Source: an uncultured bacterium | GTDB taxonomy: Bacteria > Cyanobacteriota > Cyanobacteriia > Cyanobacteriales > JAABRE01 | DNA: 64,000 nt | Direction: 5' to 3' | Assembly: GCA_964413275.1 (NCBI GenBank) | Contig: CAYPSO010000008.1 | Location: 4,565 to 68,564 of the forward strand | Shown here: positions 8,463-61,474 of the stretch, in pieces | How the letters are laid out: every line of letters begins with the position of its first letter | Numbering within the stretch: the first letter of the stretch is position 1 | Program-made: the position numbers and the translations under genes | Notes under the pieces: generated by a model | The model's database searches: none | What the model was told of the DNA's origin: nothing | What the model saw: the letters and a program-made list of their open reading frames with translations, nothing else

Positions 8463-8498
8463 TGTTAAATCTAATAAGAAATATGGAGGTATAAACCA

Positions 8499-10719: not shown

Positions 10720-10752
10720 ATAAAATAACTTAATGAATAGGAATTTAAGCCC

Positions 10753-11739: not shown

Positions 11740-11797
11740 ATTTATCTGGGAGTCAAAATAATGAGACATAAAACTCCTCGATGGCTCAATTGTAGAG

Positions 11798-12031: not shown

Positions 12032-12123
12032 GGAGTCGCTTTCGTCGGTTAGTTTGGACTGAAACCCCCACTGAGGTTATACCATTCGTATATGTAACTG
12101 GAACAATTCCTCGACATCATCCT

Positions 12124-12504: not shown

Positions 12505-12842
12505 ACTTTATTGTTAATTGAGCCTATTTTACTTTTACTACCTTCAAGATACTGCCATTGGCGATCGCCTGAATTTCTCCTTTAGCTAGGGGAATCCAGT
12601 TTTCGTTAGTCTAAACTACAGAAAAATCGGATATAGATTGTGATTTGGCAAGGGATTTAGTTAAGTTTTATTGTAAGTTTGCTGCCAGAATTAACAATAA
12701 TTATCAACATCTAAAAGCTAATTTTATTTCTCATCTGGAAGATAAAGGATATAAATTTTCTCAAGGAATGTAAAATAATTGTTGTTACCTTGTCTTAAAG
12801 TTAGAATTAAAGGTCGCAGATTATTAAAATTAGAGGAAAACT

Positions 12843-14294
12843 GTGACAGTTAGAGTTAGAATCGCTCCTAGTCCAACAGGCAATTTACATATCGGTACAG
12901 CGAGAACTGCTGTATTTAACTGGCTTTTTGCCCGTAATCGTGGTGGTCAGTTTATTTTAAGGGTAGAAGATACGGATTTAGAACGCTCTCGCCCAGAATA
13001 TACGGAAAATATTAAATCTGGTTTAACTTGGTTGGGTTTAACTTGGGATGAAGGGCCATTTTTTCAGACTCAAAGACTTGACTTATATAAACAAGCAATT
13101 CAAACCTTATTAGATAAAGATTTAGCCTATCGTTGCTATTGCACCCCAGAAGAATTAGAACAAATGCGAGCAACTCAACAAGCAAAAGGACAAGCTCCCC
13201 GCTACGATAATCGTCATCGTAATCTAACTCCTGAAGATGAGGCGAGTTTAAAGGCTGAAGGTAGAAAACCAGTAATTAGGTTTAAAATTGACGATCATCA
13301 AAATATTGTCTGGAATGATGCCATTAGGGGTACAGTCACTTGGAAAGGCAGCGATTTAGGGGGAGATATGGTTATTGCCCGTACTCCTGAAAGTGATACT
13401 GAGGCATTTGGTCAACCTTTATATAATCTAGCTGTAGTCGTCGATGATATAGACATGAATATTACCCACGTTATTCGTGGTGAGGATCATATTGCCAATA
13501 CAGCAAAGCAAATTTTACTTTATCAAGCTTTAGGGGCTAAAGTGCCAGAATTTGCCCACACTCCTCTAATCTTAAGTAAAACCGGACAGAAATTATCAAA
13601 AAGGGATGGAGTAACATCCATTGATGACTTTAGGAAAATGGGTTTTTTACCTGAAGCATTGGCTAATTATATGTCTCTTTTGGGTTGGACTCCTCCTGAT
13701 GCTACTGAAGAAATATTTACTCTTGCAGAAGCAGCCGAAAAGTTTAGTTTAGATAGGGTGAATAAGGCTGGAGCTAAATTTGATTGGGATAAACTTGACT
13801 GGATTAATAGTCAGTATCTCCATAAAATACCCGCTCCAGAATTAGTGGAATTATTAGTACCCTATTGGCAAGAAGCAGGTTATCAAGTCGATATAGAAAA
13901 CGATCGCCCTTGGCTAGAAAATCTTACAGCTTTGATTACTCCTAGTTTAACTCGTCTAGCTGATGCACCTTCAGAAAGTCGTTTGTTATTAACAGAGGTT
14001 AATTATAGTGAAGATGCGATCGCACTTTTAAAACAAGAAGGAGTTAGGGACATTATTAAATCGGTTTTAGAAGCACTTTCTAGTCAAGAAAATTTCACAG
14101 AGGAGGAAGCCAAACAAATAATTAATCAAGTTACTAAAGCGAATAACCTTAAAAAAGGTTTAGTAATGCGATCGCTTAGAGGTGCTTTAATGGGTGAATT
14201 AAGCGGGCCAGATTTGATTCAATCTTGGTTATTATTGAACAAAAAACATGAAGATAAAAATCGTTTTCAACAAGCTTTAAACGCTATTACTTAG
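12843..14294 (+). CDS. gltX: glutamate--tRNA ligase
   Basis: 483 aa, GTG start. HIGH-type [11 protein letters not shown] and KMSKS-type KLSKRDG motifs. Confidence 0.95.
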
Positions 14295-14323
14295 ATTAAT
14301 AAGTACCCCGAATAAAATTAATG

Positions 14324-14344
14324 GTAGGGTGGGCAATGCCCACC
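14324..14344. repeat. short hairpin form of MITE family A (GTAGGGTGGGCAATGCCCACC)
   Basis: Stem GGTGGGC/GCCCACC, 30 nt downstream of the gltX stop. Same motif at 33552, 60106 and 10198. Confidence 0.7.
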
Positions 14345-14563
14345 AAAAGGTTTTTGTTTAATTAATTTTATGTAACTATTTACTAGGGGCGATTATAATT
14401 CATAAATGTCAATTTTAAAAAAAATAATATGTAGTTCTATTTTGGTTATAAACATAATTTTTTTAGAGAGAGAAAAGTTTATAAATCATTTATAAACGCT
14501 ATATATATCAAAACTAAGATTTGCTCCTACTCCAAATCATAACTTTTACTTCTATAATTTATA

Positions 14564-16876: not shown

Positions 16877-16882
16877 CGAATT

Positions 16883-17107
16883 ATGTGTTTAGCAATTCCG
16901 GGTAAAATTCTTAGTATTACAGGGGAAGATTCTCTTTATCGAACAGGTAAAGTTAGTTTTGGTGGTGCAGTAAAAGAAATTAGTCTTGCTTATGTGCCAG
17001 AAGCTAAAGTAGGGGATTATGCGATTGTTCATGTTGGTTTTGCCCTTAGTATTGTCGATGAGGAAGAAGCAAAACAAACTTTAGAAGCTATTAATCAAGT
17101 CTTATAA
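16883..17107 (+). CDS. hypC: hydrogenase assembly chaperone HypC/HupF
   Basis: 74 aa; N-terminal MCLAIPGKI with the essential Cys2. Confidence 0.9.
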   Translation: MCLAIPGKILSITGEDSLYRTGKVSFGGAVKEISLAYVPEAKVGDYAIVHVGFALSIVDEEEAKQTLEAINQVL

Positions 17108-35618: not shown

Positions 35619-36272
35619 CTAATTAGAGTAATTTTCACTTAAATATTGTTCAAATTTTCTTAAAGCAACACTAGAGCCATTTTCCCAAGCAAATTCTACA
35701 TATTCTGGAATAATTTCTAGGAGAGAAAACTCATTAAAAATGATACTACTATCTACAGCTAAATATTCTCCATTTTCATAAACATATATAGATAATTTTC
35801 CTGGTCGATAAATCCATAATTCAGGAATAGCTAGAAGTAAATAATATTCAGGATTAGTGAAAGAAGTAAGGTCAACTTCGACAGCTAAATCGGGAGGTGG
35901 AAGTTTACTTAAATCTATTTTTTCTTGACCTAAAATAGCTTGACGATTATTAATATAAAAACAAGTATCTGGTTCGACTCCTGCTTGTGGGAATTTTTTT
36001 AAAGTAATTGGATCGAAACATTCCCAATCTTTACCTTGATGGTGCAATAAAATTTTAATTAAATCTCTTAAGGTATCAATTCTTTTTCCATGAGCAGGTA
36101 AAGGAGACATTAATAAAATTTCTTGAGTATAATTATTAAAATAAATTTTAGGATAAATATTTTCCTGACGAATGTTTAAAAGTTCTTCATAATCTGACCA
36201 AGTTTGCTGACGCAAAATAATTTCACCACCCGGAGGTAAACTAATTGTATCTGAACTAAGGGTAACTAACAT
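35619..36272 (-). CDS. Uma2 family endonuclease-like protein (tandem copy A)
   Basis: 217 aa; MSPLPAHGK, EPDTCFY, PDLAVEVDLTS. Differs from copy B at 14 positions by manual alignment. Confidence 0.8.
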   Translation of the reverse strand: MLVTLSSDTISLPPGGEIILRQQTWSDYEELLNIRQENIYPKIYFNNYTQEILLMSPLPAHGKRIDTLRDLIKILLHHQGKDWECFDPITLKKFPQAGVEPDTCFYINNRQAILGQEKIDLSKLPPPDLAVEVDLTSFTNPEYYLLLAIPELWIYRPGKLSIYVYENGEYLAVDSSIIFNEFSLLEIIPEYVEFAWENGSSVALRKFEQYLSENYSN

Positions 36273-36286: not shown

Positions 36287-36934
36287 TTAATAATTTTCAC
36301 TTAAATATTGTTCAAATTTTCTTAAAGCAACACTAGAGCCATTTTCCCAAGCAAATTCTACATATTCTGGAATTATTTCTAGTAGAGGAAACTCATTAAA
36401 AATGATACTATTATCTACGGTTAAATATTCTCCATTTTCATAAACATATATAAATAATTTTCCTTGTCGATAGATCCATAATTCAGGAATAGCTAAAGGT
36501 AAATAATATTCAGGTTTAGTTAAACAAGTAAGGTCAACTTCTACAGCTAAATCGGGAGGTGGAAGTTGAGTTAAATCTATTTTTTCTTGACCCAAAATAG
36601 CTTCTCGATTATTAATATAAAAACAAGTATCTGGTTCGACTCCTGCTTGTGGGAATTTTTTTAAAGTAATTGGATCGAAACATTCCCAATCTTTACCTTG
36701 ATGGTGCAATAAAATTTTAATTAAATCTCTTAAGGTATCAATTCTTTTTCCATGAGCAGGTAAAGGAGACATTAATAAAATTTCTTGAGTATAATTATTA
36801 AAATAAATTTTAGGATAAATATTTTCCTGACGAATGTTTAAAAGTTCTTCATAATCTGACCAAGTTTGCTGACGCAAAATAATTTCACCACCCGAAGGTA
36901 AACTAATTTTATCCGAACTAAGTGTAACTAACAT
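36287..36934 (-). CDS. Uma2 family endonuclease-like protein (tandem copy B)
   Basis: 215 aa. Near-identical to copy A, with 14 nt between the two genes. Confidence 0.8.
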   Translation of the reverse strand: MLVTLSSDKISLPSGGEIILRQQTWSDYEELLNIRQENIYPKIYFNNYTQEILLMSPLPAHGKRIDTLRDLIKILLHHQGKDWECFDPITLKKFPQAGVEPDTCFYINNREAILGQEKIDLTQLPPPDLAVEVDLTCLTKPEYYLPLAIPELWIYRQGKLFIYVYENGEYLTVDNSIIFNEFPLLEIIPEYVEFAWENGSSVALRKFEQYLSENY

Positions 36935-39562: not shown

Positions 39563-40120
39563 TTACATTTTTAACCAACTAAAAACATCATTTACTGTTA
39601 GTTTTAAATCAATATTTTCTAATACAGGTAAAAGGTGATCGCCTCTCAATAATTTAACTCTTTGTTCGGGAAAAATAACTAAAACTGTTTCTTGTTCTGG
39701 GTCAATTAACCATCCTAATTGTGTCCCATATTCCGAACAATGTAATAAATTATCTAATACTTTAGTTTGACTTTGATCTGGTGATAAAATTTCAATAGAC
39801 CAATCTGGATAGGTTTCAAAACGATTAGCAATTTTACCTGTTTCCGTTAAAGGAATTCTTTCCCATTGAAAAATTACCACATCTGGAACAAGAGAGCGTC
39901 CGCCAAAAGTACAACGTAATTCTGGAAAAGCATAAGCAATTTTTGAGCTTTCAGTTATTTGATTAATTGCAGCACAAAGTTTATATTGAATTCGACTATG
40001 TTCTCCTTGTGGCATTGCTTTCTGGTGAATTTCTCCATTAATAAATTCTGATGCAGGTTTTGTTTCAGGAATTTGTAAAAATTCTTCCAAACTTAACTTA
40101 TATTTAGCTGTAGTGACCAT
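39563..40120 (-). CDS. Uma2 family endonuclease-like protein
   Basis: 185 aa; PDVVIF, PDWSIEILSP, LGWLIDP. Homolog of 2736..3299. Confidence 0.8.
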   Translation of the reverse strand: MVTTAKYKLSLEEFLQIPETKPASEFINGEIHQKAMPQGEHSRIQYKLCAAINQITESSKIAYAFPELRCTFGGRSLVPDVVIFQWERIPLTETGKIANRFETYPDWSIEILSPDQSQTKVLDNLLHCSEYGTQLGWLIDPEQETVLVIFPEQRVKLLRGDHLLPVLENIDLKLTVNDVFSWLKM

Positions 40121-47776: not shown

Positions 47777-49033
47777 ATGAGATTAATAATCCCCCTTGAA
47801 TTTTACAGACATGGAGGAATAGAGAGAGTTATTGTCTCTTTAATCCGAGAAATGACCAGTCAGATAGAGAAAATTATTCTGGTGCTTCCTCCTAATAAAA
47901 TTAATTATTTTAAAAATTTATTACCTAACTCAGAAGTTATTATTTATGAGTCAATTAGTTTAGATAATAAGTCTATTGAATTAAAATATCTTGGTTTAGT
48001 AAATAGTTTATTCTCTTTATCTAAAAAGTTTAAATTAGATTTGATTAGTAAAAAATTGGCTAATTTTAAAAATCAATATCGAATTGAAGCACGCTTAAAT
48101 CAGCTAATCGACAAATATCAGGCAACCCATTGTTTATATGTATTAACCAATAATGTACCTATACCGAAATTAAGGATACGTTTAGGGATGATTAGCCATG
48201 ATGTTTTTTGGAGATTTTCACCTCTAAATTATACAGAGCAGTACAAAAAAAAATATGATGATAGTTTATTAGAATGGTTAAATTCAGTAGATATTGTTTT
48301 TGCCGTTTCTGAAAAAACTAGACAAGATATATTATCATTATTTCCTGATTTTACTGATAAAATTAAAACCGTGCCAAATGCAAGTAATTTTTATATAAAT
48401 GATTATTTTGGTACAAATAATAATGAAACTATTTTCTATTTTCCTTCTTCATTTGGTATATATAAAGATCAGTTAATTTTACTCAAAGCCGGAATTGATT
48501 TAGCAAAAAAAGGACTAAATTTTAAGATTGTTTTAACAGGTAAAGAAACTGATAGTTTTATTAATGGTAAATTATCCTTATCTCAGCAATCTTCAACTCA
48601 AGAATATCAAAATTATTTACACAAATGTCAGCAAGTTTATCAAGAAAATAAAGAAATTATCGAACAGTATTTTTTAGGGTTAGGATATGGTAGCGAGGAA
48701 TCAGTGGAAAATTGGTATAGTAAGGCTGCTTGTGTGGTTGTACCATCAAAATATGAAGGTTTTGGTTTAGCTCTATCGGAAGCGATTGTGAGAGGATTAC
48801 CTGTTATTTGTTCTAATTTGCAAGTGTTTCAAGAACAAGTAGCATTATATAAATGTGATGATAGAGTAGAATTTTTTCATACTGGTGATGTGGATAGTTT
48901 GGTGGATGCAATGGAAAAATTTATAATTAATCCTAAAGCTAAATTATCTGAAACAGAAATTCAAAACAGATTTAGTCATTGGACTTGGAAAGAAGTAGCT
49001 GAAAATTATATTAAGCTATTGCAACAAATTTAA
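47777..49033 (+). CDS. glycosyltransferase family 4-like
   Basis: 418 aa; VVPSKYEGFGLALSEAIVRGLPVICSN. Confidence 0.7.
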   Translation: MRLIIPLEFYRHGGIERVIVSLIREMTSQIEKIILVLPPNKINYFKNLLPNSEVIIYESISLDNKSIELKYLGLVNSLFSLSKKFKLDLISKKLANFKNQYRIEARLNQLIDKYQATHCLYVLTNNVPIPKLRIRLGMISHDVFWRFSPLNYTEQYKKKYDDSLLEWLNSVDIVFAVSEKTRQDILSLFPDFTDKIKTVPNASNFYINDYFGTNNNETIFYFPSSFGIYKDQLILLKAGIDLAKKGLNFKIVLTGKETDSFINGKLSLSQQSSTQEYQNYLHKCQQVYQENKEIIEQYFLGLGYGSEESVENWYSKAACVVVPSKYEGFGLALSEAIVRGLPVICSNLQVFQEQVALYKCDDRVEFFHTGDVDSLVDAMEKFIINPKAKLSETEIQNRFSHWTWKEVAENYIKLLQQI

Positions 49034-49530: not shown

Positions 49531-50508
49531 ATGATGATAAATAAAAATCTAGAAACACTATTAACGACTTTTATGACTGTAGGAGCGTTATCTGTTTTTG
49601 GAATAGGTAATGCTGATGCGGCTGTTTTAGGTGATACTTTGCAAATTGATGATTTTAGCTTTTCGGGTAATAGTACAGCACAAATAGTTAAATCTATTAA
49701 TGCTAATTTAAGTAATAACAAAACAATTTATGATATAGGAGTAAGTCTAGGCAATTCAACTCTAATTAATGCTGCTATAAATAATGTAGCCGATCAATTA
49801 GGAATTAATATAACGGAAGCTCAGTCAATTTTACAACAACCTAATTGTGGCGTAACTTCATGTTCTAATTATAGTTTATTTAGTTCTGTCGTTGGTTCTA
49901 ATAGTAGCATTCTCGGAGGATATAGAGCCTTAAACATTACTGATTTTAGTTCCACTAATAGTAGCAATAATGCTGAAGCCGTAGTATCCGGTGGCAGTTT
50001 ATTTTACAGTAATGATACTGGTGTGAACAGTAAATTAGCAGTAATTTATGATGGTAATAATAATAAAACATTTGATGCTAATGGAAATTTGAATTTCGAT
50101 TTGACTAACTCACAAAAATTAACTGGTATTTGGGTACAAGTTGTGAGTACCGATTTAGGGGTTGATGTTGGTATTGATATTTATGATGACAATGGCAGTT
50201 TATTTTCTGCTACCACTACTAATGGTATTAGTTTAACTACCCTTGATAACGGTGACAAAGGTTATTATTTTGATTTTGTTAATGATTTTGGAGGAAATTT
50301 GAATGATTTTACAAATATCAATGCTTTAAGAATGACTTTAACCGGGCAACCTGCGGCTGATTCAGAAATTCGCTTTTTAGCTGCCTCTATGATAACTGAA
50401 GAAACTCCAACACCCACAAATATACCTGAATCTAATTTATCATGGTTGACTTTAGCTACTTTAAGCGGTTTGGGCGCTATTTCTTTTAAGCGTAAAATTA
50501 ACTTTTAG
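49531..50508 (+). CDS. secreted PEP-CTERM-type sorting-signal protein
   Basis: 325 aa. Signal peptide ending GNADA. Asn/Ser/Gly-rich beta-type body. C-terminal IPES + LSWLTLATLSGLGAISF + KRK. Confidence 0.6.
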   Translation: MMINKNLETLLTTFMTVGALSVFGIGNADAAVLGDTLQIDDFSFSGNSTAQIVKSINANLSNNKTIYDIGVSLGNSTLINAAINNVADQLGINITEAQSILQQPNCGVTSCSNYSLFSSVVGSNSSILGGYRALNITDFSSTNSSNNAEAVVSGGSLFYSNDTGVNSKLAVIYDGNNNKTFDANGNLNFDLTNSQKLTGIWVQVVSTDLGVDVGIDIYDDNGSLFSATTTNGISLTTLDNGDKGYYFDFVNDFGGNLNDFTNINALRMTLTGQPAADSEIRFLAASMITEETPTPTNIPESNLSWLTLATLSGLGAISFKRKINF

Positions 50509-50677: not shown

Positions 50678-53143
50678 CTACTTAAATCCAAATTTGACTT
50701 TAAAATTCGGATCGACTTCTGCCCATTTACTAATATCAATTCCTTGGGAATGGGCTTGTTTTATTTCATTTTTGTTGGCAGTGTAACTAATTTTTTCACT
50801 ACGATATTCGGATGGTAATTCTTCTGCTTTAACTTTTAATTCTACTTTAGGATAAGCGGTAAAAGATAGTTTTCGTTCGTTACCAATGACTTTTTGGGCT
50901 AAAATACCTTGTAAATACCAAATTTTCAATTGTTGATGTAGCAATTGTTGTCCTTGTTTTAATTCGTTTAATTGCTCTTCTAAAATGTTTTTAACAGTTT
51001 TTAGTTTGGCATCTAAAGAGGCAATCGCCATTTCATATTGGTCATTTACCCATGCGATCGCATCTATATCTAAATTAACACTTTCCAATAATTTAATCAT
51101 ATCAGTTTCTGTTTGAGCTAATTGTAAATTTTCCCAAAGAGATTGCCCAATTTCGCTAAAATTTTGATGTAGCTCAATCACTGTTTGCTTTTCCTGAATT
51201 GAACTATTTTCCACAGTTTTGGCAACTTCTGCTAAGGATTGATGATAATGACTATTGATAGGTGCATTCAAATCATCTAACTCTTGACCTAAAATTTCTG
51301 CTAAAAAATTTTGTTGAATTTGGTTTAATTGTTCCTCATAAATACCAATAATAGCTGCGGCAGACTGCATTTTACGAGTTTGATAAATCTTGGTTAAATC
51401 TTGCAATAATTCTCGACGTATTTCCATTGATAAATGCAAATCTAAAAAACCCGATACTTGAGTATAAAAACGATTTATTTTCTCATCTAAAATATATTTT
51501 TGTTTATAGTTACCGGCATAGATCGCAATAGTAACTTTTTCTAAACAAGTTTGACCACTTAAATATTTGACAATTTCCATCATCATCCCAAGAGCCGCCT
51601 GCTCTGGGGAAACTTGGGTGCTACCTGTGACTAAAGCCGGAAAAGCAATGGAGCGCACCCCTTGAGCTTCAGCTAAATCCAAACAGCGTCGAGTTACTTT
51701 TTGGATTAAATCTGCATTAGTCAATTCTGGATTTTCGTAATCTAAAACTATAGCATGAAACAAATATTCAGCAGACAAATTGCCAGCAGTGGTAATGGCA
51801 ACTTGCCCTAATTGTTTGGGAGTGCGGCGTTGTGCTTCCTCACGAATAACCTTACCTCCGGCTTTGAGTAAAGATGCGGAAACTCCTCCTCCCATAGATA
51901 AATAAATATCATCAGAACTAACTAACACATCCGCTTGTATTTTGGTAATATCTTTATATTCGACGTTTAAGGTAGCTTGACCAATATTTTTAACCAAAAC
52001 TATTTTTTCCAGATTCTCAGGAGTAAGTGGAGGATAATTAACTGTTTTGACTTGAGGATTAATCGCCAAATTATGTAAAGATTGCCAAGTTAAAGGTTGA
52101 GTAGCGGGATTTTGGCAAATTACAGGTAGCCAAGTGGCACAAGGATATTTTTTTTCTAAAGGTTGCAGTTTTTCTCGTGCTTGTCTCACGCTGAGATAAA
52201 GACTTTCACCCTTCGCAAAAGCAGTAAGAAATTCTCTGAGAAATCTTTGGGCAATAATGTCAGGTACAATTTCCCGCATGACAATAATTTGGGATAGTTG
52301 CAAGGTTTCCAGGGCTTGAGCTAAACCTAAACCATCACAGGAGTTAAAAATAGCTAGTCGCAAACCATTATGAATTGCTTTAGTGAGAGCATTTTTTAAT
52401 TCGGTAATAGTAAGGAAATCTGTCGTATTAATTTGGAATTGCCCTTGGGAGTTACTATGCCCGGCAAAAAATAGAATATCCCAAGATTCTTCGTAGAGAT
52501 AATCGTTAAGTTGTTGTCTGCTAGGATTAATGAGAAAATAAGGCTCCGCATCGGATAAGGAAGCAATGATTTGTTTGTCTGTGTCAATGTCGATGCCTGT
52601 GTTGTTACCAAGAATAGCTAGAATTTTGATGGCATTGCGATTACTAGCATTCAAATTAACCGTAGCATATTCAGCAGGACTAAGAGCAACTTCGGCTCTA
52701 GGGTGAGAGTCTAAAAAGGATTCAAAAAAAATATGCCAAGGAAGACGACGTAAAGTTAAGTCTTGAGTTTGTACTAAAAGCCTAATTTCTTCATTATTAT
52801 TCACTTCTGAGAGAAGTTTTTCCCTAACTTTAGCGAGGGTTTGTGAGTTATACCACTTATTTAATTGTTGCTTGAGATTGTCGGCGTGATTTTGACAGGA
52901 ATGGGAAATATTAGTAATTTGTATGATGGGCGCACCGAGTCTAACTTCCGTACTGAGGTTACGATAATTATGCTGCCAAGTTTGATAATTTTGAGATAGG
53001 GTGGGTAAAGGTGGCAATTTTCCTTTAACTATAGTAAAGGGATGAGTAATTGATTCTGGATCATCTTCAGCAATTTGAAGATTAATCGGAAAACCACTAT
53101 CAAAGTTGCCATCTTCTAAGCGAAAAATGATTAGTTTGCCCAC
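50678..53143 (-). CDS. CHAT (caspase-like) protease domain fused to a Macro (ADP-ribose-binding/hydrolase) domain and a coiled-coil C-terminal region
   Basis: 821 aa. His-Cys dyad context ILFFAGHS (His229) and AIFNSCDG (Cys269). Macro block at about aa 385-545 (DITKIQADVLVSSDD..MGGGVSASLLKAGG...AITTAGNL..YLFHAIV...RSIAFPALVTG). The remainder is heptad-rich. Confidence 0.75.
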   Translation of the reverse strand: MGKLIIFRLEDGNFDSGFPINLQIAEDDPESITHPFTIVKGKLPPLPTLSQNYQTWQHNYRNLSTEVRLGAPIIQITNISHSCQNHADNLKQQLNKWYNSQTLAKVREKLLSEVNNNEEIRLLVQTQDLTLRRLPWHIFFESFLDSHPRAEVALSPAEYATVNLNASNRNAIKILAILGNNTGIDIDTDKQIIASLSDAEPYFLINPSRQQLNDYLYEESWDILFFAGHSNSQGQFQINTTDFLTITELKNALTKAIHNGLRLAIFNSCDGLGLAQALETLQLSQIIVMREIVPDIIAQRFLREFLTAFAKGESLYLSVRQAREKLQPLEKKYPCATWLPVICQNPATQPLTWQSLHNLAINPQVKTVNYPPLTPENLEKIVLVKNIGQATLNVEYKDITKIQADVLVSSDDIYLSMGGGVSASLLKAGGKVIREEAQRRTPKQLGQVAITTAGNLSAEYLFHAIVLDYENPELTNADLIQKVTRRCLDLAEAQGVRSIAFPALVTGSTQVSPEQAALGMMMEIVKYLSGQTCLEKVTIAIYAGNYKQKYILDEKINRFYTQVSGFLDLHLSMEIRRELLQDLTKIYQTRKMQSAAAIIGIYEEQLNQIQQNFLAEILGQELDDLNAPINSHYHQSLAEVAKTVENSSIQEKQTVIELHQNFSEIGQSLWENLQLAQTETDMIKLLESVNLDIDAIAWVNDQYEMAIASLDAKLKTVKNILEEQLNELKQGQQLLHQQLKIWYLQGILAQKVIGNERKLSFTAYPKVELKVKAEELPSEYRSEKISYTANKNEIKQAHSQGIDISKWAEVDPNFKVKFGFK

Positions 53144-53176
53144 AACTATTCCATTAAATTAAATTACTGCTAGATA

Positions 53177-53638
53177 TTATAACATTATTGGAGATTGTTC
53201 GTATAAAAGTAGGGGATGACCGTCAAAATCTCTAAAGGTTTGTTCGGTAAAATTTAAGTTATTTTCTGTGGTAAAAGTATTGGGTTTAATCACTTCTAAA
53301 TTGAGTTTTTTTACTTGTTCAATTTTATTTTTAAGTTGATTAACTTGAATAACTAAAGCACAACTATAAGACATATTTGGAGGAGATAATTTTATACCTT
53401 TTACTTCCGTTAAAGCTAAAACTCTGGGCTCATGGGGACTATCTAAAGAAGCAAAAGTTATTTCAGCTTCGGGTGGTAAATTAAATAGTGAATATAAATA
53501 AGAATCAGATGAAGCTTTACTAGAATAGGTTAATTTAAAACCAAGAATGTCTTGATAAAGTGTTAGCGATCGCTCTAAATTAGATATAGTTAAACAAGGT
53601 CGTCTAATTAGTAATATTTCTTCGATATTGGGAGACAT
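53177..53638 (-). CDS. VOC (glyoxalase/bleomycin-resistance/dioxygenase) superfamily protein
   Basis: 153 aa; PCLTISNLERSLTLYQDILGFKL and C-terminal FRDFDGHPLLLYE. Confidence 0.55.
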   Translation of the reverse strand: MSPNIEEILLIRRPCLTISNLERSLTLYQDILGFKLTYSSKASSDSYLYSLFNLPPEAEITFASLDSPHEPRVLALTEVKGIKLSPPNMSYSCALVIQVNQLKNKIEQVKKLNLEVIKPNTFTTENNLNFTEQTFRDFDGHPLLLYEQSPIML

Positions 53639-53709: not shown

Positions 53710-54867
53710 TTATATTAATTTTGATATTTTTTGAACAGTTTGAATAATTATTTTTGCTGCTTGTTCGATTTCTGATGCGGTAGTAAATTTACCAATACCT
53801 ATTCTTAATGCACCCTCAATTATTTCCTCGTCAAGATTCATTGCTCTTAAGACATGAGAAGGAGCTTCAACCCCAGATGAGCAAGCAGCACCGGTCGAAA
53901 TAGCTAGTTTATCTCTAATTCTGGCAATAATGGCACTATTGGGAATATTTGGTATAGAGATATGTAAATTACCAGCTAAACGATTATTTATATCTCCATT
54001 AATAACTAAATCGGGAATTTCTGATTCTAGTAAATTTTGTAATTTATCTCGTAAAAAAGCGATCCTTTTTTCATCTTTTTGCATTTCTAAGTGACGTAAA
54101 TGACAAGCTTCCCCTAAACCAACAATTCCGGGTACATTTAAAGTACCAGAGCGCAATCCATTTTGATGTCCACCACCATAAATCATCGGTTTTAAATAAT
54201 AATCTTTTTTAATTATTAATGCACCAATACCTTTAGGAGCATATAATTTATGACCAGAAATAGTTAAATAAGTAATACCCCAATCTTGAAAATTAATCGG
54301 AATTTTCCCTACTGCTTGAGACGCATCACATAAGAAAGGAATCTGATATTTTTGGGCAATTTTACTAATATTTTGAATCGGGTAAATAGTGCCTACTTCA
54401 TTATTCGCAGCCATGACACATAATAAAGAAGCACCCATTGAACAAATTTCTTCTAAATATTCTAAATCAAGGCGGGCTTTTCGATCTATTTTTAACCAGA
54501 TTATTTCCGTTAATCCTTTTTTTGTTAATACTTCAAAAGTATCCAAAACTGCTTTATGTTCGACTGGTAAAACTATTAAACGAGCAGGTTGAAAATTGTT
54601 AATATTTTTGTTAATTTTTCCTTGAATTACTAAATTAATGCTTTCCGTTGCACCACTGGTAAAAATAATTTCTTGAGGTGATGAATTTATTAAGTTTGCT
54701 ATTTGTTTTTTTGCTTGAATTACAGCTTTTTTTGCTTCATTGCCATAGAGATGATCCACACTATTGGCATTACCAAAATCTGTAGTCATGTAATATAAAA
54801 CTTTTTCTGCAACTCTTAAATCTACAGGCGTGGTTGCCTGATAATCAAGATAAATTGGGTTAGACAT
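53710..54867 (-). CDS. NifS/IscS-type cysteine desulfurase (class V aminotransferase)
   Basis: Start taken at MSNPIYLDYQATTP. PLP lysine in SGHKLYAPKG. Catalytic Cys loop STGAACSSG. Confidence 0.9.
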   Translation of the reverse strand: MSNPIYLDYQATTPVDLRVAEKVLYYMTTDFGNANSVDHLYGNEAKKAVIQAKKQIANLINSSPQEIIFTSGATESINLVIQGKINKNINNFQPARLIVLPVEHKAVLDTFEVLTKKGLTEIIWLKIDRKARLDLEYLEEICSMGASLLCVMAANNEVGTIYPIQNISKIAQKYQIPFLCDASQAVGKIPINFQDWGITYLTISGHKLYAPKGIGALIIKKDYYLKPMIYGGGHQNGLRSGTLNVPGIVGLGEACHLRHLEMQKDEKRIAFLRDKLQNLLESEIPDLVINGDINNRLAGNLHISIPNIPNSAIIARIRDKLAISTGAACSSGVEAPSHVLRAMNLDEEIIEGALRIGIGKFTTASEIEQAAKIIIQTVQKISKLI

Positions 54868-54943
54868 TCTAATTGATTTTAAAATCTTTATCAGCAATTA
54901 TTGTAAAATAAATTTAGTGTAATATTCATAAAATATTTAAGCC

Positions 54944-55165
54944 ATGATTAAAACTTTTACTGCTTATATTGAGTACGATTCAGAAACTAAATTGTATGTA
55001 GGCATTATTCCATCTCTTAGAGGAGTTCATTCTCAAGGTGCAACCTTAGATGAATTACAGCATAATTTAAAAGAAGTTTTAGAGTTATGTTTGGAAGAAT
55101 CTGAAGAAGATTGGAGTAATTTGCCTCAGTTTATAGGTATTCAACAAATTGAGGTTGCTTTATGA
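54944..55165 (+). CDS. hicB: HicB-family (UPF0150) antitoxin
   Basis: 73 aa; FTAYIEYDSETKLYVGIIPSLRGVHSQGATLDELQHNLKEVLELCLEE. Confidence 0.7.
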   Translation: MIKTFTAYIEYDSETKLYVGIIPSLRGVHSQGATLDELQHNLKEVLELCLEESEEDWSNLPQFIGIQQIEVAL

Positions 55166-55395
55166 GTCGCTTACCAATTGTTAACTATAAAACAGTTAAT
55201 AAACTATTAATAAAATTGGGATTTTCAATAATTAGACAAAAGGGAAGTCATGGTTTTTATCGTCATCCTGATGGGAGAACAACAACTGTACCAAATCATC
55301 AAGGTAGAGATTTAGCAAGACCATTATTAAGAGAAATTTTAAGAGAAATTAAATTAACGGTTGATGAATTTAATGAGGAATTACAAAATCTTTGA
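55162..55395 (+). CDS. hicA: HicA-family mRNA interferase toxin
   Basis: 77 aa; LIKLGFSIIRQKGSHGFYRHPDGRTTTVPNHQGRDL. 4-nt ATGA overlap with hicB. Confidence 0.8.
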   Translation: MSRLPIVNYKTVNKLLIKLGFSIIRQKGSHGFYRHPDGRTTTVPNHQGRDLARPLLREILREIKLTVDEFNEELQNL

Positions 55396-55433
55396 TTAGT
55401 AAAGCATAATTTATTATTAACACCATAAGGTAT

Positions 55434-56885
55434 TTATTTGACATCAACATAAATATCTTTTTCATATTGTTTAAATTCATCATCAAGGTTATATAATAAA
55501 TTACGTATTTGTTGACGGAGTAGTCTAGCAGGATTTAAACAATCTCGTTGATAATCTTGTATGGTTAATTCAAGATGAGGGTAAAGAAGTTTTAAAAATC
55601 CTGATGCAGTTTTAAGAATTGCTTGTTGGTCTCTAATTGTTGCATTATTATCGAATTGAGTATGTTGTTGAACATATTGATAAAAGCGGTTATCTTTTCT
55701 TAATGATAATAAGGCTTCTCCAAAAAAGTCCATTTTAAAACCTGTTTGACTCGCTATCATTTCTCTTTGAAATTTAGGAATTTCCCAACCGGGTAAAATA
55801 CCAGCAAAACGATCTAAAAATGCTGTTTCTGAGAAAAATTTAGGTAAATTAGCCATTAAATTATATTCATTTTTAGGAAGTTGATATTCATCTAATTCAA
55901 TATTTCCTAATAATACTAAAGAGCAATCACTAGCAATATCAGCAAATCCAGAACGATTATAACGTCCATTTGCTAGATAAGTTTTTAAGGGTCCGATAAT
56001 TTCATCAGGATTATCAAATGTTAAACTTTGAACTTCATCTAATACTACGACATCATAACGTCCTAATAAACCGACTTCTTTGGTTTTGCCATCAATAAAT
56101 AATTTAGCAGGGGTTATTTTACCACCACTAACTACAGAAACTTTATTATTTATATTCTCATAGACAAAGCTTTTTCCTGTTCCTTTGGGGGCTAATTCTA
56201 TTAGATGATAGTTAGATTCTAGCAAGGGTAATAAACGAGTTAATATCCATGTTTTAGCCTTATAAGTATAACTAGAATGTTCGGGATTAAAACCCATTGA
56301 ACAAAACATTAAATCTCGCCATTCGTCTATGGTAAATTGAGAACGAAATTGGGCATAAATTTTGAGATCAACTTCGGAACATTGAAAGGGATCGAAATCT
56401 ATGACAGATACTTTAAATTTACCATCTATAGTATTTTTATATCTTAAAGTTATTTTCCCCCAAACTCCTTGTCTTAATAACATTTGATAACGTTCTACAA
56501 TATCTGTCGAAATTTCACAATCTGATAAATTTAAAATAGGAATATTAGCTAAAGGTTCGGGTATTTGTTTGGCATTATTATCTAATTTGATTCTGACTTG
56601 AAGCAAGGCAATTAATTTATATATTTCTCCTTGAGTTAGTTGAAATTTAATCACTTCTTGATCATCTTTTCTGGGAAATGCTTTTTGCACAAAAGTATTA
56701 ATTTTTTCTTTTTCAATATCAGTTAAAATTCCTGTGCCATGTACAATTTTATCTAGTAACCATTCAGCAACAAAACTAGGCACTCCTAATGTAGTTAATC
56801 CACTTGAAGGTAAGCGTTTTTTATCAATACTTAGTGATTTACATACCTTAGTAACTAAGTCGCTGTTATAATTAGAAAAAGTCAT
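55434..56885 (-). CDS. TIGR02688-type AAA+ ATPase (short BrxL-like, no Lon protease domain)
   Basis: 483 aa. N-terminal LGVPSFVAEWLLDKIV as in BrxL N-domains. Walker A APKGTGKSF. Walker B DVVVLDEVQS. Confidence 0.65.
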   Translation of the reverse strand: MTFSNYNSDLVTKVCKSLSIDKKRLPSSGLTTLGVPSFVAEWLLDKIVHGTGILTDIEKEKINTFVQKAFPRKDDQEVIKFQLTQGEIYKLIALLQVRIKLDNNAKQIPEPLANIPILNLSDCEISTDIVERYQMLLRQGVWGKITLRYKNTIDGKFKVSVIDFDPFQCSEVDLKIYAQFRSQFTIDEWRDLMFCSMGFNPEHSSYTYKAKTWILTRLLPLLESNYHLIELAPKGTGKSFVYENINNKVSVVSGGKITPAKLFIDGKTKEVGLLGRYDVVVLDEVQSLTFDNPDEIIGPLKTYLANGRYNRSGFADIASDCSLVLLGNIELDEYQLPKNEYNLMANLPKFFSETAFLDRFAGILPGWEIPKFQREMIASQTGFKMDFFGEALLSLRKDNRFYQYVQQHTQFDNNATIRDQQAILKTASGFLKLLYPHLELTIQDYQRDCLNPARLLRQQIRNLLYNLDDEFKQYEKDIYVDVK

Positions 56886-58134
56886 CTAAACCTCCTTGAA
56901 TACCGCTATTAAAGACTTGTTTAATAGTTATTTGTGAGTCTGGATTAAGATTAAATTCTCCTGATTCATTGTTGGCAAATATAAAAGTTATTTTACCTGA
57001 TAATTGAATATTATCTTTATCTTTATTAATAGGTAATTCTGGACATTGATTAATAGATATTTCGTGAGTAATTTTTTCATTAGATTTAATAGTTATATCT
57101 AACATTTTTCCTGTTTTTAATTCAGGATAATTTTTAACTATCCAATTGACAAAACTATCAGCTAATTTTTCACTAATTTGCTCTTCTTTCGGGAGAATAT
57201 TAATAGTTGTTTCCCATTTCCTGAAGGGTAAATAAGATTCAGTAGCCCATTTTAAAGCATCTTGAGAACTAGCATTTATTGACAAAGGTAAAGGTTTTTG
57301 AGGCGGTAATTTTTCTTGTAATTGAAATATTTTTTGATTAGTTAAATAAACACTAATTTTAGTAATTATTTCTTGAGTAAGCCAACTAGGATTATTTAAC
57401 AAAATTTCATAAGCAAGATTGGCAATTATTTGATTACCTGTTTGTTGGGGTAACATTAATCGATCTAAAATTTTCCCTTCACTTTGATAAATTTTTTCTT
57501 GCCAAAATTCCCAAAATTTTGCTTTACAAATATCAGGAATGTCTAAAGGATATGTCCCTAATTCCTTAATAATTTGATCGTCATTATTTAACCCTAACCA
57601 ACTTTTTAATAGTTGCTCTTTATTTTTAACTTGATAATAGTTGAGTAAATGATGATGATGATTATTAGTAATATAATTTAGCCAAACATCTGCAACTATT
57701 TTATATTCTTGAGGAATTATAATAGATAACCATTGAGCTAAATGTTTTACTGATAAGTTATCAATTAGCCAAAAAGATTCTTCAGTATTAGTTACATCAG
57801 CTAATAAGTATTCAATTTTGTGATTTGAGGCATAACTATCAAGCTGAGTAACAACTTGTAAAATGTGCAAATCATCCCAATTATCAGGAATAGATATAGG
57901 AGTAAAAATAGCTTCTAATTTTAAACGTGGGTTTTGTTTTTTTTCAATTATTAAGTCAGATTTTTGCCAAACTCTTAACCATTCTTCTGTCCAATTACAG
58001 AGTTGTTTACCCTTAATCCAATAAGCATCATTTTTAAGGGTCAAATATTTTAACCATTCTACTTCTGTAGTAATAACAATATACTCACCAAGAGCTTTAT
58101 ATAATCCAGTAGGATCTAAAATAATTTTACTCAT
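56872..58134 (-). CDS. 420-aa protein of unknown function, translationally coupled on both sides
   Basis: No motif recognised (no PglZ phosphatase or PP-loop motif). Its start overlaps the Uma2 stop by 8 nt and its stop overlaps the AAA+ start by 14 nt. Confidence 0.5.
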   Translation of the reverse strand: MSKIILDPTGLYKALGEYIVITTEVEWLKYLTLKNDAYWIKGKQLCNWTEEWLRVWQKSDLIIEKKQNPRLKLEAIFTPISIPDNWDDLHILQVVTQLDSYASNHKIEYLLADVTNTEESFWLIDNLSVKHLAQWLSIIIPQEYKIVADVWLNYITNNHHHHLLNYYQVKNKEQLLKSWLGLNNDDQIIKELGTYPLDIPDICKAKFWEFWQEKIYQSEGKILDRLMLPQQTGNQIIANLAYEILLNNPSWLTQEIITKISVYLTNQKIFQLQEKLPPQKPLPLSINASSQDALKWATESYLPFRKWETTINILPKEEQISEKLADSFVNWIVKNYPELKTGKMLDITIKSNEKITHEISINQCPELPINKDKDNIQLSGKITFIFANNESGEFNLNPDSQITIKQVFNSGIQGGLDDFF

Positions 58135-58714
58135 TATGAAAATCTACTTTATCATAAATATCAATTAAGGAAATTTCAAAATTAATTTTCTCAAAAATAA
58201 TTAAATCTTTTTCTGTATTATATTCTCTAAATAACCATTGATTTTTATCGGTTCTACTATAATGATCTATTTGCAATTTATATTGATCGATTAACAAATA
58301 TTCACAAAAATTTTCTATACTACGATAAGCAGAAAATTTCTGATCTTTGTCATAACTACGGGTAGATTTAGATAAAACTTCAATGATAATATAAGCATTA
58401 ATTAAAGTATCTTTTCTTCCTTCTTGAAATTGTAAGTCATCTTTAATAATCATAATATCGGGATAGGTATAAATTTCATAATTAGGTATCCAGAGACGTT
58501 GATCGGCAACAAATACTTGAAAAGGTTGTTTTTTAAGGGCAAAATTTAATGCCGCATACAAGTTTCCAGCTATTTTATTATGATTAGGTGTACCCCCTGT
58601 CATTTTAATAATTTCTCCTTTAATATATTCATGACGATCATTACTATTAATTTCTAAATCAAAATATTCATTAATAGTATAAATTTTGGTTTTGTCTAAG
58701 ATTGCTTTTGTCAT
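58127..58714 (-). CDS. Uma2 family endonuclease-like protein embedded in the defence-type operon
   Basis: 195 aa; HEYIKGEIIKMTGGTPNH, YPDIMII, IIIEVLSKST, K..AY. A different subfamily from the other four copies. Confidence 0.8.
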   Translation of the reverse strand: MTKAILDKTKIYTINEYFDLEINSNDRHEYIKGEIIKMTGGTPNHNKIAGNLYAALNFALKKQPFQVFVADQRLWIPNYEIYTYPDIMIIKDDLQFQEGRKDTLINAYIIIEVLSKSTRSYDKDQKFSAYRSIENFCEYLLIDQYKLQIDHYSRTDKNQWLFREYNTEKDLIIFEKINFEISLIDIYDKVDFHNE

Positions 58715-58787
58715 AATTATTAACCTTTATTTTATAAGTTTTCCCATTAAAAGATAACTTTAGTATAACTTAATTATAGTCAATCTT

Positions 58788-58855
58788 GTAGGGTGGGCAA
58801 AGCTTCCACAAATTATAAAATTAAGACTAAAATTATTTTTGCTTTGCCACCTTAC
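58788..58855. mobile_element. MITE-like element, family A (GTAGGGTGGGCAAAG...CTTTGCCACCTTAC)
   Basis: Its end abuts (1 nt) the stop codon 58856-58858 of the ATPase fragment. Confidence 0.65.
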
Positions 58856-60059
58856 TTATTCTAAATATTGTGTTAATTTGTCATATAATTTTTGTTTTCT
58901 TTCAAGGGGAAGTTGATTAAATAAAGTAATAATTTGATTCTCTTCACTTTCAGTTTGAATCCTTATACATTGAGTTTGAACTTTGTCTAATAGATTTTTC
59001 TCTGAATCACTTAAATAATTAATATGTACTGATTTATATTTATTAATACTTTTAAGCAAATTATCTACTAAATTAAGTTTTTCATCTTCTATTTGTTGCT
59101 CAATTTTAGTGAAGTTTTCGTTTAAATCATCTAACCATAATTTAGCATTAGCTTTATTTTTGTTTTCAATAGTTTCAATTTTTAAAGTTGGTAAAATATT
59201 ATCTGTAACTTCCACTTCATCTAGAAATTTTCGTAGAGAAAAAGGTTCGTCAGAAGTTAAAAAAGTAAATAAAGAGCGATCGTTTTGAGCGTAACGATAA
59301 CACAAAGTTGGTAATACTAAAGCTGTTAAAGGATGGAGGGGATAAACTTGTTCTAAAATGCTTTTATCAATTTCTTCTGCTATTAAAATAGGCCGTAATT
59401 TTTCATACCATTCTTGAGCATAATTATTAATTCGACAAGCAATAACTTCGGATTTAGTGCGATCGATTGCTTGTCCCATCAAACGCATCATTTGTCCGGT
59501 AGATTCAGTAAAAGGAATATCCTCAAATCTGCCTTGAATTTTTGCCCATTCATTGCGCTGTACTGTTGCTAATCTTTGTCCGTATTCGGTAAAAGCTTGA
59601 TGTAAAATACCTAAAATATAAACAATTATCTATACCGATAATCAAAGCTCTAATAATAGTATAACTAATTGCTTCTCTTTGTCCTGTTGCGATCGCTCTC
59701 AATCAACCTTGTTCTGGTATATTTTTTACCAAGGCTTGGTAATCATCATTTTCCAAGCTTAAAGTAGTTTCTGTAATGGTTAAAGCTTGTTGTTTAATTA
59801 ATTTTATTTGGGGAGCTAATAAAGATATAAAATAATGGGCAAAAGCAGATTTTCCCGTACCATAAACTCCCGTTAAAGTCCAGCAATTATTACTATTTTT
59901 ATTATTAAAACTTGTTAAAATTCGACGCAAAGTATCAAGAGCTTTTTCGGTGAGAATATACCCATCTAAAGCAGAACTATTATCTAAATCTCTTTCCAAA
60001 TTAATAGAGCGAGTATAACGACGTTCTAAACTAACATAATGAGACAATTTATAATTCAT
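58856..60059 (-). pseudogene. degraded P-loop NTPase of the BrxC/PglY/SspC-like (DUF499-like) type
   Basis: The N-terminal ORF has Walker A TGVYGTGKS and ends at an in-frame TGA (59703-59705). Reading continues LRAIATGQREAISYTII... to a frame break near 59608-59624. Then comes LGILHQAFTEYGQRLATVQRNEWAKIQGRFEDIPF and the 211-aa ORF with YPLHPLT...AQNDRSLFTFL. No Walker B segment was seen. Confidence 0.65.
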
Positions 60060-60105
60060 AATAAAAAAAACTAAGATATTTTCTCTATCTATAATACCTT
60101 AATCT

Positions 60106-60125
60106 GTAGGGTGGGCAATGCCCAC
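60106..60125. repeat. short hairpin form of MITE family A (GTAGGGTGGGCAATGCCCAC)
   Basis: Lies between the DUF4007 stop and the ATPase start. Confidence 0.65.
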
Positions 60126-60207
60126 AAATTTTTAATTCCAAAATTATTTTTTAATAATCAATTAATAATGAATCTTCTTAATATTTATTAGGTAATATTA
60201 CATCAGT

Positions 60208-61131
60208 CTAACTAACTTTATAATAATTATTAATAATTTCTAAAGCTAATTTTTCTGGTTGCTCTGGAAAAGATAATTGAATCAAACCTGCGCTATCAGA
60301 TAAAACAATAGATTTGTATTTTTTAGTAACAATTTCAATTGCTTCGTAAAGAGCATTTTCTGATAATTTAAAAACTACTCCGGGGCTACTTACATCATAT
60401 AATAAACGAGAAATACTAATAGTTTTTTCACTTTCTCGTATCCAGCTTGCATATTCTAAACAAGTGGCAACAATAATTTCTGAAGGTAAATCAGTTTTTG
60501 CACCAACTCGAAAACGATAATTAGAAGAGCTACGAACTTGATAAATTAAACCTAAATCTACAAAAGGACAATCAATAGAATCTTCCAAAATATTACCTTG
60601 TTTATCTTCAGATTGTACATACATTCGTAAAATACAGCTTAAATCTTTATTCAGAGAAGATTCAGCTACAGTTTTGTTAATCTCATCATGGTATTGATAT
60701 TCTTTTAATCCTTGAAAAATATTTTCACGGGAAAATTCAACTCGATTGAAACGATTAAAAACATAATACCATGCAGCAGCAGTACAAGTTGGCTTAAGCA
60801 AATTCCAATGTAATAACCATAAAGAAGCAGGATTTTCTAAATACTCATCCCAACCATTTTCACCTAATAAATTTCTGCCAAATTCTGAGGGGGTATCGTC
60901 ATCTTTAGTAATCTTAAAAGCATTGCACCAATAACGTATTGCTCGCACCATATTTTTCCCTACACCTAATTTTACAGGTGCATCGATCGCAAGAAAAATA
61001 CTAGAATCTAAATTAGCAGCATCAAAACCTTTTTTTAACCATCCCCAACGAGGATGAAAAGTTTCATGACGAGCAAAAATTGGATTAACGGGATTTGCTA
61101 ATATATTTAATTCAAGGGTTTTTTGAGACAT
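60208..61131 (-). CDS. DUF4007 family protein (SspB-like)
   Basis: 307 aa; FARHETFHPRWGWLKKGFDA and KLGVGKNMVRAIRYWCNAF match the DUF4007 N-terminal signature as I remember it. Confidence 0.65.
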   Translation of the reverse strand: MSQKTLELNILANPVNPIFARHETFHPRWGWLKKGFDAANLDSSIFLAIDAPVKLGVGKNMVRAIRYWCNAFKITKDDDTPSEFGRNLLGENGWDEYLENPASLWLLHWNLLKPTCTAAAWYYVFNRFNRVEFSRENIFQGLKEYQYHDEINKTVAESSLNKDLSCILRMYVQSEDKQGNILEDSIDCPFVDLGLIYQVRSSSNYRFRVGAKTDLPSEIIVATCLEYASWIRESEKTISISRLLYDVSSPGVVFKLSENALYEAIEIVTKKYKSIVLSDSAGLIQLSFPEQPEKLALEIINNYYKVS

Positions 61132-61222
61132 AAAAATATTATTTTTTTAAATCATTATATTTTATTACTTTAAAATATAATATAAAAATAGATAAAATTA
61201 ACTATATTATATAGATCGAATT

Positions 61223-61474
61223 ATGCAAAATATAAATTATCACGATCTAAAGGAAAATTTGCCAGCACTTATAGAACAAATTGCTCATCAACATGAACCT
61301 TTATGTCTCGAATTACCTAATTCACTTAAAGCAATAATACTCTCGGAAGAAGATTATAGTAGTTTAATGGAAACTTTATATCTATTGACTAATCCAGTAA
61401 ATGTAGAAATATTACTAAAAGCTGCTAATCGTTATATCAGTGAAGCTATTGAGTGGCAAGAAGTTAAAAATTAA
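61223..61474 (+). CDS. Phd/YefM-family antitoxin, no adjacent toxin gene
   Basis: 83 aa; INYHDLKENLPALIEQI...AIILSEEDYSSLMETLYLL. Only 86 nt separate it from uvrB. Confidence 0.7.
   Translation: MQNINYHDLKENLPALIEQIAHQHEPLCLELPNSLKAIILSEEDYSSLMETLYLLTNPVNVEILLKAANRYISEAIEWQEVKN

Follow-up and report, generated by a model that had tools for sequence, protein, structure and literature searches.

A cyanobacterial caspase-like protein that unites EACC2-like, CHAT, Macro and Gp157-like modules in one polypeptide

How is a caspase-like protease controlled when its putative sensor modules are part of the same polypeptide? This question is raised by a gene of an uncultured bacterium (GTDB lineage Cyanobacteriota; Cyanobacteriales; JAABRE01), located in a 64,000-nucleotide stretch of contig CAYPSO010000008.1 (NCBI GenBank assembly GCA_964413275.1, positions 4,565 to 68,564 of the forward strand), which derives from a stromatolite metagenome and is hereafter called the window. 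The initial annotation, made from the sequence alone, described the product as a CHAT protease fused to a Macro domain, about 270 amino acids (aa) of coiled coil and a small beta-rich end. We characterized the protein by profile searches, structure prediction and alignment with 36 full-length relatives, and compared the loci of its family. A gene encoding both CHAT and Macro was confirmed by the list of open reading frames (ORFs), Pfam and Foldseek. The complete polypeptide has the architecture EACC2-like / CHAT / Macro / helical hairpin / Gp157-like, and the last module, which went unnoticed in the initial annotation, is the most distinctive part of the protein. The features of the gene, in window coordinates, are as follows.

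50678-53143, minus strand: CHAT-Macro-Gp157 ORF, 821 aa, GTG start
52799..53143, minus strand: N-terminal alpha+beta region, likely EACC2, aa 1-115, belonging to the constant cassette
52076..52798, minus strand: CHAT (caspase-like) protease domain with the catalytic dyad, aa 116-356, PF12770
52457-52459 and 52337-52339, minus strand: dyad codons, His229 and Cys269, respectively
52001..52075, minus strand: variable, low-confidence linker between cassette and Macro, aa 357-381
51509..52000, minus strand: Macro domain, reader type, aa 382-545, PF01661 and Foldseek matches
51290..51484, minus strand: conserved helical hairpin after Macro, aa 554-618, RFY559-560 motif
51161..51283, minus strand: disordered, poorly conserved linker, aa 621-661
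50681..51160, minus strand: Sipho_Gp157-family domain, aa 662-821, Pfam, PHROG, HMMER and fold matches

The C-terminal Gp157-like domain

The helices annotated as one long coiled coil are indeed present; however, they are divided among a hairpin, a disordered linker and a discrete domain that includes the beta-rich end. Specifically, the AlphaFold model of the full protein (predicted local distance difference test (pLDDT) 75.6) has hairpin helices at 554-589 and 593-618, pLDDT values below 50 across aa 621-661, where the alignment is gappy and variable, and, within aa 662-821, two short helices, a 52-residue helix and a beta-rich end, the helix-plus-beta module spanning 664-819. The C-terminal 265 aa are strongly conserved, including RFY559-560 (F559 and Y560 are invariant), W670, G754, P765, LP776-777, Y787, N813, K815 and F818.

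The C-terminal domain belongs to the Sipho_Gp157 family, as indicated by four independent lines of evidence, namely profile matches, an HMMER search, end-to-end alignment and fold matches. The window domain matched PHROG 253 (E = 1e-5), as did 48 of 54 aligned relatives (best E = 1.5e-32), and it scored 28.3 bits against Pfam Sipho_Gp157 (PF05565), just under the cut-off of 28.6, over profile positions 3-152 of 162. The same Pfam model matched 51 of the 54 aligned relatives (best E = 1e-33) and 15 of 18 family C-termini. When 1.8 billion representatives were searched exhaustively with the C-terminal profile in HMMER, 119 clusters were retrieved, nearly all of them free-standing proteins of 160-220 aa that cover profile positions ~106-266. 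These free-standing relatives align end to end with aa 662-821, and the motifs of the Gp157-like domain (DIDxxAWxNDQYE, G..R.I.F, PKV, LPxEYR and Y.A.K..IK.A..G.D) are common to both. Furthermore, when the domain was modelled separately (pLDDT 91.9), its best structural matches in BFVD were phage models named 'Siphovirus Gp157' or 'resistance protein', with template modelling (TM) scores of 0.5-0.6. Note that the latter label stems from Pfam text citing Foley et al. 1998. A tblastn search of phage genomes with the C-terminal domain gave no match, and a word-indexed homolog search with the C-terminal profile returned nothing, probably because it was swamped by coiled-coil words. Hidden Markov model matches of the domain to designed TIM barrels and eL39 were discarded as spurious short motifs.

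The closest free-standing relatives are cyanobacterial; 22 are on large plasmids according to PLSDB records, 15 of which are predicted to be conjugative. Examples are found on Nostoc PCC 7120 pCC7120beta (positions 5902-6504 of locus L024) and Chroococcidiopsis pCHRO.01 (5821-6450 of L025), and neighbours of the plasmid genes include an integrase, an HNH endonuclease, a DUF3987 protein and IscB. Two other proteins, P0142 (532 aa) and P0164 (486 aa, Lyngbya sp. CCY1209), carry the Gp157-like domain at their C-terminus behind 320-370 aa that match no Pfam model, and may be further fusions of this module. We know of no biochemical activity of Gp157 proteins.

PHROG 253 bears the label 'Mu Gam-like end protection', and one slot upstream of the erf/sak4-ssb (SSAP-ssb) recombination modules of Firmicutes phages is taken by either sipho_gp157 or a Mu gam homolog (PMC8093625). 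An hhalign comparison of the Gp157-like alignment with a profile of six authentic Gam sequences gave Prob 76% and E = 2.3e-5 over 92 collinear columns. A distant relationship between the Gp157-like domain and Gam is plausible.

The EACC2-caspase cassette and the Macro domain

The caspase-like part of the protein was annotated correctly, including its dyad. Pfam CHAT (PF12770) matched aa 186-338 with 42 bits against a cut-off of 24 (E = 1e-10), and His229 (FFAGHS) and Cys269 (FNSCDG) are invariant in the 36 relatives and kept in CHASE2 and STAND paralogs as well. In the model, each dyad residue comes after a beta strand (E223-227 and E263-266), a caspase-like arrangement. HMMER detected no sequence-level likeness of the window protein to solved CHAT structures. 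The region before the protease domain (aa 1-115), whose first residues, MGKL, do not vary within the CHAT-Macro-Gp157 family, matches no Pfam model and is predicted to form strands at 3-9, 17-26 and 37-43, followed by helices at 48-113.

These two regions together make up a widespread unit. BLASTP showed that aa 1-356 are ~50% identical to the N-termini of a CHASE2 protein (P0060) and a STAND protein (P0058), that the similarity stops sharply at ~aa 356, at ICQNPA..P.TW..L, and that the common part is always N-terminal. Thousands of cyanobacterial proteins match the first ~350 aa alone, at ~50% identity, and their C-termini comprise CHASE2, nSTAND1/AAA_16, TPR, pentapeptide, ANF receptor and trypsin domains, as well as kinase and repeats. 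The entire 820-aa architecture was found by homolog search in ~36 clusters at 41-54% identity; the named carriers of this long form are Geminocystis spp. and Cyanobacterium aponinum, the others being metagenomic.

A constant N-terminus with variable C-terminal fusions was described by Kaur, Iyer, Burroughs and Aravind (eLife 2021; PMC8195603), who defined EACC2 as a novel alpha+beta domain constantly found beside a caspase. By similarity, aa 1-356 are this constant EACC2 + caspase module. The same authors catalogued the family among conflict and apoptosis-like systems, proposed that a stimulus induces activation of the caspase or autopeptidase with the variable C-terminus helping to sense, and listed 'ADP-ribose-processing macro domains' among the fusions, so that the CHAT-Macro architecture had already been catalogued, though only computationally. 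They reported DUF1822 and ECF-sigma genes as frequent neighbours (in the majority, not all) and TRADD-N as another; genes for TRADD-N, ECF sigma and DUF1822 were found neither in the window nor in the 10 other long-form loci. A short-form locus, L008 of Microcoleus sp. EPA2, fits the described neighbourhood: an array of EACC2-caspase paralogs at 5836-16900 (CHAT-Macro-Zn-ribbon, pentapeptide-CHAT and CHAT-kinase) has two DUF1822 genes and a trypsin-PDZ gene beside it. Literature searches for CHAT with macro and caspase-like, or for CHAT with CHASE2 in cyanobacteria, found nothing.

Between the cassette and the Macro domain, pLDDT falls below 50 across aa 359-381 and the alignment columns are poorly conserved; this linker could be a region of autocleavage. 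On the other side of the Macro domain, the hairpin appears to form a unit with it: short CHAT-Macro proteins likewise end in the hairpin, and P0172 (632 aa, CHAT and Macro) matches just the hairpin part of the C-terminal profile.

The Macro assignment is supported by Pfam (PF01661, aa 414-517, 75.8 bits against a cut-off of 22, E = 3.5e-21) and by Foldseek of the full model against the PDB, which was dominated by macrodomains at TM scores of ~0.8 (macroH2A1.1, PARP14 macro2, OiMacroD and TTHA0132). The best sequence alignments were with Thermus thermophilus TTHA0132 (2dx6, E = 3e-21) and PARP14 macro2. The window Macro keeps the adenine-contacting Asp (D398, KDIT), SSDD409-412, GGGV418-421 and ALVTGSTQ503-510 including TG506-507; thus a glycine-rich ligand loop, on which the annotated ligand binding had been made to depend, is present in this protein, while loop 2 reads GSTQ and is atypical relative to G-x-[FY]-G. 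NAAN is replaced by SSDD, and the catalytic Asn, Asp and His positions of MacroD, the latter two placed by MacroD2 numbering, are D412, S422 and L426. In addition, NCBIfam models of O-acetyl-ADP-ribose deacetylase scored far below their curated cut-offs. Judged by these residues, the window Macro is reader-like, not hydrolase-like, and the annotated alternative that it reverses ADP-ribosylation as self-protection is unlikely because the MacroD catalytic residues are missing.

The ligand contacts are distributed unevenly in the family. The window protein and the short CHAT-Macro proteins (490-700 aa) have a motif set in common, D[IL]T...VSSDD...SMGGGVS...GG / FPAL[AV]TG. In ~30 of the 820-aa orthologs from Geminocystis and Cyanobacterium, every motif is gone (the corresponding segments read NSL, VNYTD, SMSEDI and FPVFLPHN), and still the dyad and the Gp157 domain are kept; P0002-P0004 and P0036 are intermediate. 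ADP-ribose gating as a family-wide mechanism is therefore not upheld. A candidate second active site in the decayed Macro (D412, H463 and C487) was dropped, as these are generic macro-core positions found in TTHA0132 and PARP14 too.

In a neighbor-joining (NJ) tree of the common CHAT+Macro region rooted on the short forms, the long forms are monophyletic and the window lineage is basal, which fits a single Gp157 acquisition before Macro decay. The simplest reading is one gain of the Gp157 module followed by decay of the Macro ligand contacts, and the Gp157 domain would have been appended in one lineage to the Macro-hairpin unit, which also occurs alone in the shorter CHAT-Macro proteins. If this order holds, ADP-ribose sensing is not a general mechanism of the family, and the Gp157 module would be the part of the C-terminus that cannot be dispensed with. 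Both modules, a Macro with ligand motifs and the Gp157 domain, are kept in the window protein.

Genomic surroundings

The initial annotation had noted the VOC gene closely upstream and placed the whole set in an island with TA modules and a BREX/Ssp-like remnant. The neighbouring features in the window are as follows.

49531-50508, plus strand: 325-aa Asn/Ser-rich secreted protein with a PEP-CTERM-like C-terminal tail, no family match, convergent with the CHAT-Macro gene
53144..53176, minus strand: 33-nt spacer from the VOC stop to the GTG start, no terminator-like site
53177-53638, minus strand: VOC/Glyoxalase gene, 153 aa, PF00903, 30.2 bits against a cut-off of 20.6
53710-54897, minus strand: IscS/DndA-like cysteine desulfurase
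54944-55395, plus strand: HicB/HicA
55434-56885, minus strand: BrxL-like ATPase without the Lon protease part
56872-58134, minus strand: 420-aa ORF with a weak PglZ match
58856-59491 and 59703-60059, minus strand: SspC/BrxC split over two ORFs, with a Uma2 gene beside the break
60208-61131, minus strand: DUF4007
~61223-61474, plus strand: Phd/YefM antitoxin

We compared this arrangement with 10 other loci of the family. A scan of genome contigs with a narrow pattern yielded 6 loci only.

Window: VOC gene upstream, PEP-CTERM-like protein downstream
L001: psaB and crcB beside the gene
L002: Na/H exchanger and CCA-adding enzyme
L004: mltA and rtcB
L010: xisHI upstream, a different VOC gene two genes downstream
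L012, L015, L021 and L022: convergent hpsJ ortholog downstream
L014: 1067-aa ORF upstream, pgk downstream
L023: DUF2283

The 11 loci thus represent eight unrelated contexts, mostly housekeeping, with no conserved partner gene. The VOC ORF does lie 33 nt upstream on the same strand, as annotated, promoter-like matches between the two genes are at chance level, and co-transcription is possible. However, a VOC gene adjoins the family gene in just two of the 11 loci, on opposite sides, the two VOC proteins show no relationship in sequence (BLASTP E = 4.2), and a phmmer search of the 10 other loci for an ortholog of the window VOC was negative; the VOC gene was accordingly rejected as a functional partner. 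The second case is the locus of the closest homolog, L010, where XisH/XisI (7125-7864) precede the gene and the 121-aa VOC protein (10719-11084) is unrelated to that of the window, a coincidence that could mislead neighbourhood analysis.

Likewise, a defence-like stretch does lie next door, at 53.7-61.5 kb, but it is local to the window, the family gene being found elsewhere beside psaAB, crcB, rtcB, hpsJ, pgk and others. This stretch (53710-61474) is a decayed Ssp/BREX-like cluster, and outside it the 64-kb window is mostly housekeeping. No TIR, SIR2, ART or other NAD-processing gene was found in the window or the 10 other loci; cas genes were absent from the window and the family loci, and TPR and SAVED domains from the window protein. 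The hpsJ orthologs of L021 and L022 are 58% identical, indicating vertical inheritance and stable synteny. Extension of this synteny to the window was rejected, since the 325-aa neighbour is unrelated to HpsJ.

Other genes of the window are recorded here as separate observations. Five belong to the Uma2 family (putative restriction endonuclease-like; 2736-3299, 35619-36272, 36287-36934, 39563-40120 and 58127-58714), two of them in tandem and one abutting the split SspC gene. Two glycosyltransferases match Pfam GT4-conflict (PF20706), at 47777-49033 on the plus strand, two genes from the CHAT-Macro gene, and at 401-1651 on the minus strand.

The rate of divergence was assessed with UvrB as a reference. 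The window UvrB is 80-82% identical to those of Stanieria, Gloeothece and Xenococcaceae and 87-88% to those of metagenome-assembled genomes, whereas the CHAT-Macro-Gp157 protein is only 45-54% identical to its nearest relatives. The comparison with UvrB, at ~80% across the order, indicates that the CHAT-Macro-Gp157 protein evolves far faster. The UvrB identities also point to a source organism of the Chroococcales/Pleurocapsales type.

Possible roles and comparison with known systems

The window gene plausibly encodes a one-protein sensor-plus-protease. The reading that we favor, tentatively and at slightly less than an even chance, is an EACC2-caspase protease that works solo and uses its C-terminal Macro and Gp157-like modules for sensing or targeting, a function that we infer from sequence. 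The sensor-effector logic of the initial annotation is reasonable for this class of proteins, agrees with the proposal in PMC8195603 and suits the Macro motifs kept in the window protein; what does not stand is its form as a VOC-linked, family-wide gating by ADP-ribose. In the favored mechanism, the protease would be held or localized by the C-terminal modules; the Gp157-like domain would dimerize via its 52-residue helix and bind DNA ends or, alternatively, a mobile-element partner involved in DNA metabolism; and the Macro of the window protein in particular may also bind an ADP-ribose-type ligand. The CHAT domains would then be activated by proximity or conformational change and cleave in cis, probably within the disordered linkers, or in trans, and the likely role would be a regulated-proteolysis response to invading or damaged DNA.

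Several points weigh against this reading. The gene is vertically inherited with stable hpsJ synteny in the Geminocystis clade and has housekeeping surroundings, which is atypical of mobile defence genes, and PADLOC gave no match for the CHAT-Macro protein (nor for the VOC protein). With respect to DNA ends, neither Ku nor any other PDB structure was matched by the C-terminal model in Foldseek at E <= 0.001, the single-sequence hhalign comparison with Gam was weak (E = 0.024), and the equation of PHROG 253 with Mu Gam was rejected as stated, Mu Gam being in PHROGs 491 and 2205. In addition, the inter-domain geometry of the full model is unreliable (predicted TM score 0.47) and the NJ tree carries no support values. 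Sensing, dimerization, DNA-end binding and autocleavage are all inferred, and we know of no experiment on any EACC2-caspase or Gp157-family protein.

The housekeeping surroundings agree with a somewhat unlikely explanation, namely that the protein is a lineage-specific housekeeping or stress protease outside conflict, for example a regulator of the DNA-damage response in which the Gam-like domain binds chromosomal breaks and the Macro serves as a scaffold. The gene is present, apparently as a single copy, in the named Geminocystis genomes and Cyanobacterium aponinum, its chromosomal place beside hpsJ is kept in four loci, and purifying conservation is seen for the dyad and the C-terminal motifs. 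However, divergence much faster than that of UvrB is unexpected for such a protein, the cassette family, listed by Kaur et al. with conflict and apoptosis-like systems, is hypervariable, and the relatives of the C-terminal domain are plasmid and phage genes.

An unlikely reading, which extends the initial annotation, is that an ADP-ribose-derived messenger or an ADP-ribosylated target on the Macro switches CHAT on, the gene forming with VOC a two-gene, Thoeris-like unit in a defence island. For the window protein alone, the retention of D398, GGGV418-421 and TG506-507 would permit such gating, the spacer to the VOC gene lacks a terminator, and the Ssp/BREX remnant and HicAB lie next door. There are also precedents, as Thoeris II effectors sense His-ADPR via a non-catalytic Macro and oligomerize upon binding, and Thoeris IV and SAVED-CHAT show nucleotide gating of caspase-like proteases. 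Against these stand the absence of a TIR, SIR2, ART or other NAD-processing gene from all 11 loci, the non-conserved VOC adjacency, the atypical loop 2, the failure of PADLOC to match Thoeris or any other system, and the ~30 orthologs that keep the dyad and the C-terminal domain without the ligand-contact motifs.

A bolder proposal, which we regard as decidedly doubtful, is a single-chain immune sensor, in which a domesticated Gam-like domain would detect invading linear DNA ends or act as a decoy for a mobile element's recombination partner, the Macro reader, in an ancestral state kept in the window protein, would supply a second input (e.g., ADP-ribosylation upon infection), and the caspase-like domain would be the executioner. 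If true, this would be caspase activation by DNA-end sensing, a mode undescribed in bacteria. Finally, it is very improbable that the Macro is an active ADP-ribosylhydrolase for self-protection or toxin reversal with CHAT and the C-terminus as accessories, since similarity to O-acetyl-ADP-ribose deacetylase and MacroD in NCBIfam and Pfam lies below all curated cut-offs and, despite the name 'O-acetyl-ADP-ribose deacetylase' given to several homologs by JGI, SSDD stands for NAAN, Ser422 and Leu426 occupy the catalytic Asp/His positions, non-catalytic readers (PARP14 macro2, macroH2A1.1 and PARP9) are among the nearest relatives of solved structure, and most orthologs have lost the binding loops altogether.

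Returning to the favored reading of a solo protease with appended modules, bacterial immunity is by now known to employ caspase-like proteases under the control of an added sensor (Thoeris IV, type III CRISPR), and the window gene would be a compact, single-gene entry point into the very large cyanobacterial EACC2-caspase class, in which an intact dyad is joined to a Macro with the look of a competent ligand binder and to a Gam-like module derived from mobile elements. Orthologs with a decayed Macro and short forms without the Gp157 module are natural controls that separate the two inputs. The analysis also gives the uncharacterized Gp157 family its first cellular context and corrects an over-reading of gene adjacency with respect to the VOC gene and the defence island.

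Among known systems, type II Thoeris ThsA-Macro resembles the window protein in that a non-catalytic Macro with an adenine-contacting Asp is fused to an effector and serves there as the His-ADPR sensor. However, the window protein differs in having no adjacent TIR (ThsB) gene, no transmembrane effector part and no PADLOC match, and its Macro falls in a subfamily nearer to TTHA0132 and PARP14 macro2, with ligand motifs lost in most orthologs. Type IV Thoeris ThsE, SAVED-CHAT and Csx29 (Craspase, type III CRISPR) likewise combine a caspase-fold protease with an appended sensor domain, but their sensor domains are different, and no TIR or cas gene is near the window gene. Phage Mu Gam and Gp157 share the recombination-module slot and a distant profile similarity, a homology of the Gp157-like domain to Gam/Ku being tentative. 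With Siphovirus Gp157 (PF05565, PHROG 253), the likeness extends to end-to-end alignment over 160 aa and the predicted fold; the difference is that the window domain is fused to a protease and chromosomal. A further close system is that of the EACC2-caspase proteins, a class known from comparative genomics alone, which have the same constant alpha+beta and caspase N-terminus, a swappable C-terminus and listed macro fusions, and to which the window protein adds a Gp157/Gam-like domain that is absent from the list in PMC8195603.

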